From: an uncultured bacterium
GTDB lineage: Bacteria; Patescibacteriota; Minisyncoccia; UBA6257; 2-01-FULL-56-20
Direction of reading: 5' to 3'
Assembly (NCBI GenBank): GCA_963768625.1
Contig: CAVYIK010000003.1
Span: 198,715 to 262,714 of the forward strand
DNA: 64,000 nt
A program made the position numbers and the translations under genes. Below the pieces are notes generated by a model. That model worked only from the letters and a program-made list of their open reading frames with translations, ran no database searches and had not been told where the DNA came from. Position 1 is the first letter of the stretch. Each line of letters opens with the position of its first letter. Shown in pieces: positions 36,944 through 44,755 of the stretch.

Positions 36944-36963
36944 TTACCGCTTGGCCCACTAGG
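36944..36963 (-). repeat. relic copy of the rpsI 3' end (TAG TGG GCC AAG CGG TAA = *WAKR*)
   Basis: Compare the true rpsI end at 44177-44197. The Gln codon is mutated to TAG and the other differences are synonymous. Confidence 0.55.
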
Positions 36964-37022
36964 CCTCTAATGATATAGTTCTTGAAAGGCCGCTACCCCT
37001 TAATTAATCTCATTATAAAAAT

Positions 37023-37187
37023 ATGGTAAGAGGAAACTTTATCGGCGCGGCGATCGTCGCAATAATCTACACGGTCTATATCGTATGGAATCCCCTTGTG
37101 TCGCGCTCACAAACAGCAATATTGTTAGTAGTTCTTAATGCGCTGACTATCGTGCTGTTGTCCTTCGCATTCAAAGGCGGCGTCTGA
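37023..37187 (+). CDS. possible small membrane protein (54 aa)
   Basis: My own translation gives MVRGNFIGAAIVAIIYTVYIVWNPLVSRSQTAILLVVLNALTIVLLSFAFKGGV. It is below the ORF-track cutoff and has two hydrophobic helices. Confidence 0.3.
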   Translation: MVRGNFIGAAIVAIIYTVYIVWNPLVSRSQTAILLVVLNALTIVLLSFAFKGGV

Positions 37188-37199
37188 CGCTCCGCCACA

Positions 37200-37505
37200 C
37201 TACTTTTCAGCTCGTTTACCAATCACGAATTTCTGTGAAGGACTTAGCGCCTTATCTTTTCGGTGTGTACAGCCGATCCAACAACAGGGGCGACGCATCC
37301 CCTCTTTAAGTTCTGAGCGCACCCGGTCGATATGTTCCTGACGCTTTTCCGGCGTCTTCACGGAGATGGTCCAACATATCCACTCATTGCGTGCCAATGG
37401 CGTAATATCCTCCCATGCCGCAAGGGCTTTTGGGTCGGAGGCGAGAGCTTTCTTTAAATCTGTCGGCAGTGGATGCGCCACGCCGCCGGAAATCTTCTTG
37501 GCCAT
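37200..37505 (-). CDS. YdeI/OmpD-associated family protein
   Basis: MAKKISGGVAHPLPTDLKKALASDPKALAAWEDITPLARNEWICWTISVKTPEKRQEHIDRV.. The start is taken 6 nt after TATAAT (37512-37517). Confidence 0.65.
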   Translation of the reverse strand: MAKKISGGVAHPLPTDLKKALASDPKALAAWEDITPLARNEWICWTISVKTPEKRQEHIDRVRSELKEGMRRPCCWIGCTHRKDKALSPSQKFVIGKRAEK

Positions 37506-37515
37506 ATGCATATTA

Positions 37516-37547
37516 TACAAAAACCTCGCATTGTTGCGAGGTTTTAA
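37516..37547 (-). terminator. intrinsic terminator following a relic rpsI end
   Basis: Minus strand reads AACCUCGCA-ACAA-UGCGAGGUU followed by UUUGU. Confidence 0.6.
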
Positions 37548-37570
37548 GCGCTTTCGCCTGTGGCGCTCGA

Positions 37571-37592
37571 TTAGCGCTTCGCCCACTTGTGG
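37571..37592 (-). repeat. relic copy of the rpsI 3' end (CAC AAG TGG GCG AAG CGC TAA = HKWAKR*)
   Basis: Same WAKR-stop reading as rpsI with synonymous Lys/Arg codon changes. Its post-stop sequence cgagcgcc is shared with the 36944 copy. Confidence 0.55.
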
Positions 37593-37677
37593 ATTCCAGC
37601 GGCCCCCATGAGCCATCTATAAAAGACTCCACTCTCCCGTATGCGGTTTTACAACCATGCGGGAGCGTGGAACTCCT

Positions 37678-37698
37678 CTACCGTTTGGCCCACTGGGG
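37678..37698 (-). repeat. relic copy of the rpsI 3' end (CCC CAG TGG GCC AAA CGG TAG = PQWAKR*)
   Basis: 18 of 21 nt are identical to 44177-44197. All three differences are synonymous (including the stop). It is followed by a long imperfect hairpin and UUUU (37677-37620). Confidence 0.6.
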
Positions 37699-42118: not shown

Positions 42119-42126
42119 ATATTTGG

Positions 42127-42699
42127 TTACAGGCCGCCAATGATCTCTTCCGTTTTTCTTACGAGCCCGATACGCGGGAATGTTTTGGCGACCGTGAATG
42201 CGTGCTCTTCTGCCGACATCGCTGCCATGGCGTCCTCGGCAAAGATCTGATGATATCCGTATTCATATGCAAAGCGTGCGGTGCTTTCGACGCCGATATT
42301 GGTTGAAATGCCGCAGAGTACCATCGTGGTAATGCCGCGACGGCGAAACTCCAAATCGAGTTCTGTGCCGTAGAACGCGCCCCACTGATGCTTGGTGATC
42401 ACAAAATCTCCGGGCTTCGGTCCCATCTCCGGAACGAGCTCGGCCCAGTCCGGCGCGGGAGTTTGCGACCATGGTGCGGCGTCGGTGATAGGATGCAGCG
42501 CATCCTTCCCATCCGGCGATGGCGTAACGCGCACCAAGAATACCGGCATGCCATTTGCACGGAATGCGTCCGCGAGCGCCGCAGCGTTCTTTATCACCGT
42601 TGCCGAATTGTATGGAGCAACCTGCCGTCCCGCGATTCCTTTCTGGAGATCGATGACGACCAATGCGGTTTTTGATTTGTCGATGGAGGGTGTATTCAT
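42127..42699 (-). CDS. isochorismatase / cysteine hydrolase family protein
   Basis: 190 aa with TALVVIDLQKG and ..VLCGISTNIGVESTAR (catalytic Cys region). Confidence 0.8.
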   Translation of the reverse strand: MNTPSIDKSKTALVVIDLQKGIAGRQVAPYNSATVIKNAAALADAFRANGMPVFLVRVTPSPDGKDALHPITDAAPWSQTPAPDWAELVPEMGPKPGDFVITKHQWGAFYGTELDLEFRRRGITTMVLCGISTNIGVESTARFAYEYGYHQIFAEDAMAAMSAEEHAFTVAKTFPRIGLVRKTEEIIGGL

Positions 42700-42842
42700 T
42701 CCTGCTATTATATCATTTTTTTACCCCTATCCCAAAAAGCCATTTGCGGATGATAGTCCCTACCCTAATAGGTCTTTCTAAAATCACTAGATGTCCCGAG
42801 ATAAAGATGAAGAAAAAAAATAAGTGACCGTAAATCCCCTCG

Positions 42843-43001
42843 TCATAGGATATCCGCAAGCTCAACTGCATCATCTTCGTCCAACCCCTCTTCGATAAGC
42901 TCCTGAACTTTTTCCGCCGTGTCCTCATCGATGTCGTGATTTTCCATGAGTTGGGCGATATCCTCGTCTGGCTTGTCCTCATTCTCGGGCTGATCTTCCA
43001 T
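42843..43001 (-). CDS. possible small acidic protein (52 aa)
   Basis: My own translation gives MEDQPENEDKPDEDIAQLMENHDIDEDTAEKVQELIEEGLDEDDAVELADIL. It is below the ORF-track cutoff. Confidence 0.3.
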   Translation of the reverse strand: MEDQPENEDKPDEDIAQLMENHDIDEDTAEKVQELIEEGLDEDDAVELADIL

Positions 43002-43004
43002 GCC

Positions 43005-43819
43005 TTAATTTATAAGCTTGATTTGATCGGATGAAAGCTCGTAGATTTTATATATCTCCGCATCAATCTGATCCTCGACTACGGCTATCTGATTTTTTAT
43101 TTCAGCATACTCCTCCCGCTCGAGTATGGCATTCAACCGGTGAAGTTCGACATTCAGCTTCATGGCTTCATCGACGAGTGCGATGATTTCTTGCTCCACT
43201 TTTTTATCCGCGGTCGTTTTAACTGGAAAATTCATCAGCGGCTCTTTATCTATTTGCAGGTTATCGCCCTGAACCTTCCCGCGATTTTTGAACCAGAAGT
43301 ATGCGACTTTGGAATTCAATAGCGCGGTCAGATATTTGGGATTGATGTTTTTCGGCTTGATTGCATAAAACGATTGGGAGACGTAGCAGGGGAAATCGAC
43401 ATATGAAAATGCTGGCCTCGCCGTCTTACGTAGTGACAAGACGACTCCGCCATCGAAAAACTTCTGATCGCGAGCGCGGTGTAGGCCGTAGGGAGCGAAA
43501 TCGGAGGTCATTACCGGCCCGAATTTATCGAAGTGCGACTTGATTGCCGGATACGAATCGATCTTTTTTGTGTTGGCTGAATCCATATAAAGAATCCACT
43601 TCTTGTTTTTCCTGTCGGCATAAAACCTGCTGATTTCAGTGGATTCGTAATAGGGCCGTGCAACCTGCCTCTCCCGAATTTCTCCACGCTCTTCTTTAAC
43701 TCCTCAGCCTGCTTCTCGCTCATCTTGCGAGGGTTCTCCGCGTTCGGAACAAGGTCGTTTACCTTCCGTTGTTCGGTGTGCCAGGATAATTTGTTTGTTT
43801 TTTCTTTTGTTGCATTCAT
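43005..43819 (-). pseudogene. remnant of a restriction-modification gene: ParB-like N-terminus joined out of frame to a TaqI_C/Eco57I-like specificity domain, methylase core missing
   Basis: The N-terminus (MNATKEKTNKLSWHTEQRKVNDLVPNAENPRKMSEKQAEELKKSVEKFG) is ParB-nuclease-like. The C-terminal ORF (..YPAIKSHFDKF..FSYVDFPCYVSQSFYAIKPK.INPKYLTALLNSKVAYFWFKN..) matches type IIG/BREX-methylase C-termini. The two parts are in different frames. Confidence 0.5.
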
Positions 43820-44101
43820 GATAAAAAATCGACATCTGTGATGATGCCGATTCGATACCAGAGTGCGACGCTTCTCCAAACGACGCATTCCGGTAGCGAA
43901 CAGGGATCGCCACGGGAATATGTATTTGGAGAAGTGTAAGCTCGTTCGAACTTATTACCCTAATTATATTTTATTTTTCGAATAAAATCAAGAGGTATTT
44001 TCAGTAAATGTGTCAATCAATAAAGAAAAACTGACCCTGTGTTGTTCACTATGAGGCAGAGCGGTGAATTTACTTTATTGAATTTTTCTTTTTTGCTCGC
44101 T

Positions 44102-44136
44102 AAAAAAAGAATGACCCGTTTTGTTGGCCATTCTTT
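44102..44136 (-). terminator. intrinsic terminator of the ribosomal-protein operon
   Basis: Minus strand reads AAGAAUGGCC-loop-GGGUCAUUCUU followed by U5-7, about 40 nt after the rpsI stop. Confidence 0.7.
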
Positions 44137-44176
44137 TAATCGATAAATCGTTTCTGACGCTGTGCGTGCGAAATTT

Positions 44177-44755
44177 TTACCTTTTCGCCCACTGGGGAGC
44201 CCTGCGCGCTTTCTTGAGGCCGTACTTCTTGCGTTCCACCATGCGGGAGTCGCGGGTCATGTAGCCCATGGCGCGGAGGCGCGGCTTCCAGGCGGCGTCC
44301 ACGAGGACGATCGCGCGGGAAAGGCCGTGGCGGATGGCTTCGGCTTGGGCATTGATGCCGCCGCCCGAGACGTGCACCGATCACATCAAAGTTCTTCAAC
44401 TGGAGCTCGTGAAGGGGCGCCAGGGCGGCCGCGACGAGGCGCGGGAGCGTGAAATAGCTCTTGGGATCTTTTCCGTTCACCGTGGATTTTCCTGACCCCG
44501 CCATAATGCGCACGCGCGCGACGGCGGTCTTCCGGCGGCCGGTGGCTTCGGTATAGCGAGCGGCTTTGGCCGCAGGATGGGCGGCGGCTGCGTGAGGCGC
44601 TGCCGCGTGCGGCTGTTGCGGAATGGCTCGGAGCCGCATGGGGAGCATGAGAAACGGCGGGCGACACGTGGACGGCCTCTGAGGCCGCACGCGGGGCGCG
44701 TGGTGGCCCTTGCGGCGTGCTTTACTGGTTCTTTGGGGGTTGGGGTTATGGCCAT
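44177..44755 (-). pseudogene. rpsI: 30S ribosomal protein S9 with an A/P/H-rich N-terminal extension; frame broken at least 3 times as assembled
   Basis: Fragments are MAITPTPKEPVKHAARA.. / ..YTEATGRRKTAVARVRIMAGSGKSTVNGKD..LKNFDVI / [21 protein letters not shown]...[12 protein letters not shown]. One break is an extra base near 44377. Confidence 0.8.

Follow-up and report, generated by a model that had tools for sequence, protein, structure and literature searches.

Relic copies of the rpsI gene end bracket accessory DNA in a Patescibacteria genome and point to serial insertion at the rpsI 3' end

The stretch of DNA analysed here (contig CAVYIK010000003.1 of an uncultured member of the Patescibacteria; the whole 64 kb are referred to as the window) carries on its minus strand the 3' end of the ribosomal protein operon rpoA-rplQ-rplM-rpsI, and beyond the last gene of this operon three further copies of that gene's final codons are found, which together with the true gene end bracket several kilobases of accessory DNA. 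The gene concerned, rpsI (44177..44755), was recognized from its translation, which shows two apparent single-base frameshifts; the encoded ribosomal protein S9 is 73-83% identical to S9 of Patescibacteria/Parcubacteria metagenome-assembled genomes (MAGs), including closed chromosomes of 0.83-0.9 Mb. The current functional gene end, c1 (44177..44197), reads CCC CAG TGG GCG AAA AGG TAA (PQWAKR*). Downstream on the same strand follow c2 (37678..37698), which reads CCC CAG TGG GCC AAA CGG TAG, again PQWAKR*, and differs from c1 at three positions, every one of them synonymous on codon comparison; c3 (37558..37591), in which the 21 nt CAC AAG TGG GCG AAG CGC TAA (HKWAKR*, 37591 to 37571) are succeeded by the post-stop box tCGAGCGCCACAG; and c4 (36931..36961), in which the 18 nt TAG TGG GCC AAG CGG TAA (36961 to 36944) are succeeded by the box gCGAGCGCCGCGG. 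All four copies, and the synonymous nature of the c1/c2 differences, had been pointed out in an earlier sequence-only reading of this DNA, whose coordinates are exact for c1 and c2 and need slight correction for the others: c3 starts at 37591 and not at 37592, and c4 at 36961, the position 36963 adding a CC to it. The same reading had noticed a common post-stop sequence in two of the relics, and this is seen in c3 as tCGAGCGCCacag and in c4 as gCGAGCGCCgcgg, within a 31-nt block common to both that runs 13 nt beyond the stop codon. In the form CGAGCGCCRCAG the post-stop box belongs to the repeated site in several genomes.

The pattern of the W-A-K-R-stop codons, TGGGCNAARMGNTAR, has four perfect matches in the 64 kb; they share the rpsI strand and span no more than 7.3 kb. 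When one mismatch is allowed there are 5 matches against 0.64 expected, and five or more were obtained in none of 100 shuffles; the only further match, at 22019-22033 inside a polysaccharide deacetylase open reading frame (ORF), is due to chance. A hairpin followed by a U-run had been described after c1, c2 and c3, but not after c4, and folding bears this out on the minus strand for the intrinsic terminator after c1 (44101..44137, z -3.7), which would be the first part of the newest insert, for the terminator that went with the c2 end (37621..37677, z -3.9) and for that after c3 (37520..37545, z -3.4). No terminator follows the c4 stop; its place is taken by the reverse complement of a cloverleaf, tRNA-like RNA gene (36849..36932, plus strand) that had been overlooked in the sequence-only reading. 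This RNA gene lies directly beyond c4, is convergent with rpsI and forms the distal anchor of the array.

Comparable arrays are present in related genomes. A 37-nt profile of the site was run over both strands of 595 kb, made up of about 50 Patescibacteria rpsI loci (designated by L numbers) with up to 10 kb on either side, together with the window. True rpsI ends aside, it recovered 13 copies downstream of rpsI on the rpsI strand, one upstream and none antisense, the c3 site matching at E = 4e-9. The relatives have one to six sites 3' of rpsI, spaced 0.1-6.5 kb apart with variable cargo between them. The longest array, in L003, has six clear sites (10367, 13865, 14121, 15870, 16278 and 16665) and a degenerate copy beside its homologue of the RNA gene; in L004 the two sites (10367 and 12216) are direct repeats identical over 32 bp, and the 1.85 kb enclosed by them encodes two secreted proteins; in L084 (644, 1933 and 2684) a lone ICMT gene lies between two sites and is followed by a YdeI gene; in L087 two sites (10367 and 16549) enclose 6.2 kb; and L010, L088, L095, L028 and L009 have two or three sites each. 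The bounding direct repeats measure 21-35 nt (23 bp in L028). In a wider set of 140 rpsI loci from many phyla, each searched against itself within 10 kb, clear relics occurred only in Patescibacteria; the weak AT-rich matches seen besides in L031 and L078 are probably chance. A dispersed repeat of the repetitive extragenic palindromic (REP) or miniature inverted-repeat (MITE) kind was therefore rejected, the copies being essentially confined to the rpsI strand downstream of rpsI in both the window and the 595 kb; the earlier expectation that the motif would not be scattered over unrelated sites has been upheld, with no further copies in the 64 kb.

Chance similarity, or an assembly artefact in which strain chimeras were joined at a short repeat, has in its favour that the window contains indel errors. 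Single-base frameshifts occur at short homopolymers in rpsI (44370-44380 and about 44640-44700), in rplM (about 44930, e.g. GGAAAAGATC) and in rpsD (about 46540), and are probably long-read assembly errors rather than marks of pseudogenes. Against an explanation of this kind stand the shuffle statistics, the recurrence of a like architecture in many independent short-read and long-read assemblies, and the shortness of the repeat, since 24-35 nt would not suffice to misguide a long-read assembly. Its probability is negligible, and it is effectively refuted by the comparative data.

The direction of change is indicated by pairs of empty and occupied loci. Behind the intact rpsI stop of L001 come the post-stop box and, directly after it, the RNA gene, whereas in the window about 7.2 kb intervene and it is c4 that stands beside the RNA gene. 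Since the L001 rpsI end adjoins the RNA gene just as c4 does, c4 appears to be the original rpsI end, and the 7.2 kb to have been inserted between rpsI and c4. The relics would accordingly differ in age, with c4 the oldest and still abutting its ancestral neighbour. Two other comparisons are of the same kind: the L087 relic is flanked on its 3' side by a homologue of the terminator native to L091 and L083, so that L091, L083 and also L088 represent the empty state of L087, and the L003 relic at 14121 carries a flank that is native in L002. The repeat-bounded presence and absence that the sequence-only reading had predicted among relatives is thus found in L001 and the window, in L091, L083 and L088 against L087, and in L002 against L003. 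In both L003 and L084 the relics are progressively more decayed the farther they lie from rpsI.

The position of the junction can be read from the relics themselves. From -9 to the stop (-9..+15) their identity to the cognate rpsI is 0.67-0.96; upstream of -9 it falls to 0.49-0.58, against 0.50-0.53 for shuffled sequence. In ten well-registered relics 20 of 20 differences inside W-A-K-R-stop are synonymous, and the non-synonymous ones all lie in the P and Q codons preceding TGG. By the author's own estimate about 20% of random substitutions in the W-A-K-R-stop codons would be synonymous or stop-preserving, and neutral decay is very unlikely to have produced so uniform a pattern, even with some ascertainment bias allowed for. 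The synonymous-only right arm implies that a relic consists, in its right part, of a once functional gene end that has been moved away together with the DNA downstream of it, as had been proposed for the window copies from the outset; the left part is non-coding insert DNA. The junction is accordingly fixed near CAG|TGG, with the exchange point inside CAGTGGGC. That the last codons come with the insert follows from L087, where the two copies differ within the last three codons. The left arm of c2 has an apparent protein-level likeness to the S9 C-terminus without nucleotide-level support, and the flank just 5' of it (about 37706-37729) holds the string ATCGTTTTGGCGCATCCAAAAG, which occurs again upstream of the L087 relic.

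It could be supposed, alternatively, that the copies are functional modules, such as a 3'-end or terminator RNA element or a protein-binding box, which are reused after several genes, overlap the rpsI stop by chance and are kept alike by selection or gene conversion. The post-stop box is indeed conserved across species. Moreover, in a second subclade (L028 2160-2310, L009 643-802, L101 2628-2790, L095 10361-10562 and L110 2007-2074) an inverted copy lies immediately 3' of the rpsI end and pairs with it, in a hairpin that covaries with synonymous rpsI changes. A conserved structured element some 100 nt long comes next (motifs GGGUCGG, CCGUGUCGGA, AACCGAGGGU and UAAGGAG; no Rfam match at E <= 1) and has a direct copy of the gene end as its last part, the order being inverted copy, element and direct relic. 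What such a module leaves unexplained is that untranslated relics keep their stop codons and vary in a codon-synonymous manner, that they decay with distance from rpsI in L003 and L084, that copies occur downstream of rpsI (13 against one upstream and none antisense), that the Type-A sites fold inconsistently, and that the comparisons of empty with occupied loci show insertion. Reuse of a functional module is for these reasons quite improbable.

On the basis of the fixed junction, the short identity blocks, the restored gene end and the stacking of units, the favoured explanation is site-specific recombination with tandem accretion, that is, serial insertion at the last codons of rpsI, which would serve as a recurrent bacterial attachment site (attB) in a clade of Patescibacteria. 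A probability of roughly two in three is given to this reading. The serial integration proposed earlier for the window is in this way supported by the arrays, the empty sites, the substitution pattern and the confinement to one locus; the terminators after c1 to c3, the low GC content of the cargo relative to the ribosomal protein operon, the tyrosine-integrase precedent at rpsI in streptococci and the tyrosine recombinase genes next to rpsI in other phyla lend it further support. An incoming segment would recombine at the fixed point CAG|TGGGC, at codons -6/-5, so that the host would retain rpsI through the Gln codon while the insert would donate a new W-A-K-R-stop, often the box CGAGCGCCRCAG, and a terminator. 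The previous end would be displaced downstream, together with its terminator and flank, as a relic having insert DNA as its left arm, and repeated events would stack the inserts with the newest nearest to rpsI. Read in this manner, the order in the window would be rpsI, the 6.5-kb decayed mosaic, c2 with its terminator, c3, the YdeI cassette, c4 and the tRNA-like RNA gene, and the W-A-K-R-stop of c1 would have been supplied by the most recent insert. The joining would be the work of a site-specific recombinase, most likely of the tyrosine type.

A number of observations weigh against serial site-specific insertion. No integrase or recombinase was found in the 64-kb window, either by Pfam on 20 ORFs (10 of them integrase-sized), by a catalytic-box motif scan or by tblastn with an Xer-like protein, and no integrase was seen in the 10 kb 3' of rpsI in the approximately 50 Patescibacteria loci. 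Pfam on 129 ORFs downstream of rpsI in the relatives likewise gave no integrase among the top 25 families listed. The exception is an Xer-like gene in L091, which lies next to rpsO in a housekeeping context, unlinked and without a relic. The same methods of detection do find tyrosine recombinase genes immediately downstream of rpsI in a Bacillota MAG (L016 10507-11133, minus strand) and in two Leptotrichia MAGs (L078 10257-10406 and L143 10516-10665, both minus strand), and these three loci have no relic within 10 kb. A free phage-type attachment site (attP) was looked for on viral contigs by pattern scans, and the matches were either at chance level or unrelated. The site itself shows no convincing inverted-repeat core and no stable hairpin: DNA folds of the sites have z values of -0.1 to -2.7 and no common structure, and such dyad symmetry as there is (CAGTGGGCG ... 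CGCCRCAG), judged by eye, is weak. The identity blocks are short, 7-14 nt in several events and at most 32. Ordinary homologous replacement evidently also shapes the region, since L001 (10381-11590) and L002 (10381-10430), closed genomes that are 85-91% identical farther downstream, differ after rpsI by a 1.2-kb segment, comprising in L001 the RNA gene and an LCM-type methyltransferase, that has no bounding repeats. Finally, the indel errors of the window assembly are a caveat: as rpsI, rplM and rpsD look hit by homopolymer indels, some of the cargo 'wrecks' may be assembly noise.

Several of these points are what would be expected if no dedicated recombinase were involved. CPR (Candidate Phyla Radiation) bacteria, as the Patescibacteria are also called, are often thought to be naturally competent. 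Related CPR DNA could be taken up and recombined by an exchange anchored in rpsI, with microhomology closing the other side (homology-facilitated illegitimate recombination), or circular DNA with an rpsI end on it could be integrated by a Campbell-type single crossover. The arrays could then be reshuffled by homologous recombination between the flanking conserved genes. The lack of a recombinase gene in any array, the L001/L002 replacement without repeats, the differing order of cassettes in L004 and L090, and the conservation of the flanking anchors (rpsI and the tRNA-like gene) all fit such a course. It is nevertheless unlikely, as at least 8 independent relics have their junctions within one and the same stretch of a few nucleotides, whereas microhomology joins should scatter; as the random-level identity beyond -9 leaves too little homology for RecA; and as the perfect 32-bp repeat of L004 and the common box CGAGCGCCRCAG resemble a defined site. 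Campbell integration by homologous, RecA-dependent recombination is in particular disfavoured by an identity upstream of -9 that equals that of shuffles.

If the serial site-specific insertion favoured here is correct, the recombinase, carried by none of the arrays examined, would either be supplied in trans or have disappeared as the elements decayed. The sequence-only reading had remarked that the window lacks a recombinase and had supposed the elements to be decayed or mobilised in trans; the first part has stood, the recombinase-less state being found also in every Patescibacteria array examined, and the second would account for it. A more far-reaching proposal, possible if doubtful, is that of a Patescibacteria cassette platform, in which integrase-less units with a site of about 31 nt (CAGTGGGCGAAGCGNTARnCGAGCGCCRCAG) would be captured, stacked, excised and reshuffled by a chromosomal recombinase acting in trans, integron-like in function, with the rpsI end as its 'attI' and the tRNA-like RNA gene as its distal boundary. 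On this same tentative proposal the units would range from a bare terminator or an RNA of about 100 nt up to a few genes.

The tRNA-like RNA gene beyond c4 is identified by a sub-threshold match to the Rfam tmRNA model, by homologues and by covariation. In the consensus, a closing stem of 12 bp (GCGGUGGG.../...CCACCGC) that includes an invariant G.U pair is combined with a mini hairpin, a long stem in the middle and a T-arm whose loop is UUCAACU, and over four sequences 11 of 24 pairs are compensatory, changed on both sides. Homologues stand in the same relative position by the rpsI arrays of L001 (10393-10475), L003 (17223-17305) and L086 (1428-1510), each on the minus strand, and a decayed copy is found in L002 at 9.4 kb downstream of rpsI. 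The match to the tmRNA model reaches 27.9 bits against a gathering score of 47; both ends of the model align and 312 central positions are missing. ARAGORN made no call. Assignment as a tmRNA or a tRNA was rejected on these two grounds, even though an acceptor-like stem with G.U and a T-arm are present, and the cloverleaf gene, which resembles the tRNA-like domain (TLD) of tmRNA, may represent an undescribed RNA family. A displaced fragment (36700..36747, plus strand) resembles the 5' region of an L002-type copy. A 20-nt direct repeat, CTGGATCYGAATCGACACTC, occurs on the plus strand at 36728-36747 and 36873-36892, 145 bp apart, its second copy being internal to the RNA gene, and an insertion seems to have replaced the 5' half of the RNA gene itself. 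The upstream copy of CTGGATCYGAATCGACACTC adjoins a bidirectional terminator and sequence homologous to the decayed L002 copy (L002 19680-19830).

The cargo between the sites falls into two parts. The proximal 6.5 kb (37699..44176, minus strand), delimited by ORFs, GC content and Pfam, has a GC content of 45-53% as against 57% in the ribosomal protein operon, and all its genes are co-oriented with rpsI. From the rpsI side they are a TaqI_C methylase fragment in a ParB-like wreck (43005-43888), an isochorismatase (42127-42699), an ABC ATPase (41303-42118) and an ABC-2 permease (40522-41346), DUF5652 (39864-40121), a glyoxalase/VOC protein (38567-38986) and an ICMT/PEMT methyltransferase (37869-38429), besides small ORFs. 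The distal part is a conserved cassette with a YdeI/OmdA-like gene (37200..37505, minus strand). Pfam thus agrees with the earlier assignments of ICMT, VOC, ABC-2 exporter, isochorismatase, YdeI-like protein and methylase fragment, while the 'ParB' part of what had been called a restriction-modification (RM)/ParB wreck has no Pfam match. The YdeI-like gene is a recurrent distal unit, found in the window, in L003 (bounded by the sites 15870-16278), L084, L004 and L090, whereas the proximal cargo differs everywhere. Exact-protein look-ups for strain-level polymorphism were uninformative, the L17 and YdeI proteins being without record and the isochorismatase occurring only on a 1.8-kb contig and one large contig.

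Two further repeats lie within the proximal cargo. The VOC gene stands between 24-nt direct repeats, GTTGCGCGGGCAAGAGGCGAT.AT, that are 96% identical (38520-38543 and 38998-39021), and a 12-nt string, CTACGTCCCCAG, is identical on the minus strand at the left flank of c2 (37693-37704) and just upstream of VOC (39028-39039), so that VOC and ICMT are bracketed by a 'half site' ending in CCCCAG. Elsewhere in the window, a block of low GC content (8000-24000; 35-47% against 53-60% elsewhere) contains many glycosyltransferase genes and a polysaccharide deacetylase, and was probably acquired horizontally as a cluster for surface polysaccharides.

Little is understood of gene acquisition in the CPR/Patescibacteria, whose genomes are tiny; the rpsI locus would be a defined and recurrent point of entry, through which transporters, envelope and secreted proteins, methyltransferases and small detoxification enzymes come in. 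The relic ends are recognizable from sequence alone, so that a search of thousands of MAGs could put acquisitions in order and date them, and the synonymous-only rule to the right of the junction provides an unusually clean mapping of the crossover without experiments. The relics and the tRNA-like gene also account for spurious small ORFs annotated 3' of rpsI. If a trans-acting recombinase is in fact responsible, the system would be a new site-specific one with a conserved target in every bacterium of the clade.

Features of the array are shared with several known systems. Xer-dependent elements (IMEXs and pdif modules) are likewise integrase-less modules with short sites, which would rely on the recombinase of the host. 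To the eye, the site described here appears unlike the 28-nt, 11-6-11 arrangement (XerC arm, 6 bp, XerD arm) of canonical dif sequences; it does not lie at a terminus, the GC skew being monotonic across the window, and the only Xer-like gene (in L091) is unlinked. The arrays of integrons, and the integron cassette clusters without an integrase (CALINs), are alike in having small units with short sites, mostly co-oriented and often with a single gene, the newest proximal to the docking site, and cassettes without a recombinase. They differ in that no intI stands by the array here and that the docking site is a coding end, with the operon rpoA-rplQ-rplM-rpsI upstream. Identity of the site with an integron attC was rejected, as it is about 31 nt long against a palindrome of at least about 55 nt, has no R''/L''-L'/R' arrangement and no common fold; of the core GTTRRRY the GTT is not conserved (G-N-T-A-R-R-C, with C, G or T at the second position).

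Islands in tRNA and tmRNA genes, as understood in the Islander/TIGER logic (PMC4383910), resemble the present arrays in the regenerated target end, the displaced fragment and the tandem arrangement. As in such islands, moreover, the site is close to the 3' end of a tRNA-like gene, about 20 nt away at most, but it is the end of a protein gene that is duplicated here, and no integrase is present.

The closest counterpart is provided by the integrative and conjugative (ICEs) and integrative and mobilisable elements (IMEs) of streptococci, for three tyrosine-integrase families of which the rpsI 3' end is the target, with tandem accretion and decayed remnants (PMC4701971, PMC5357655). Elements such as IMESag-rpsI, with integrases of the Tyr_4, Tyr_5 and Tyr_7 families, share with the present arrays the same gene end, its restoration by the element, the bounding direct repeats and the stacking of intact and decayed units (PMC4701971, PMC5357655). 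Here too the insert enters among the final rpsI codons, at the junction CAG|TGG, and its own DNA re-establishes the reading frame. The recombinase genes of L016, L078 and L143 suggest that the rpsI 3' end is a widespread site of integration also outside the streptococci. The streptococcal elements, however, are 5-100 kb long and have an integrase next to the attachment (att) site and relaxase or conjugation genes, whereas the units described here measure 0.1-6.5 kb and often have one gene; the window and the Patescibacteria arrays have no integrase inside the element next to the site, neither an integrase nor a mobilisation gene was found in about 10 arrays, and the host is a CPR bacterium. 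The kind of event, rpsI 3'-end integration with accretion, is therefore a known one; what is new is its occurrence in a CPR lineage, the miniature integrase-less units, the conserved 31-nt site with its post-stop box, and the tRNA-like gene as the distal anchor.

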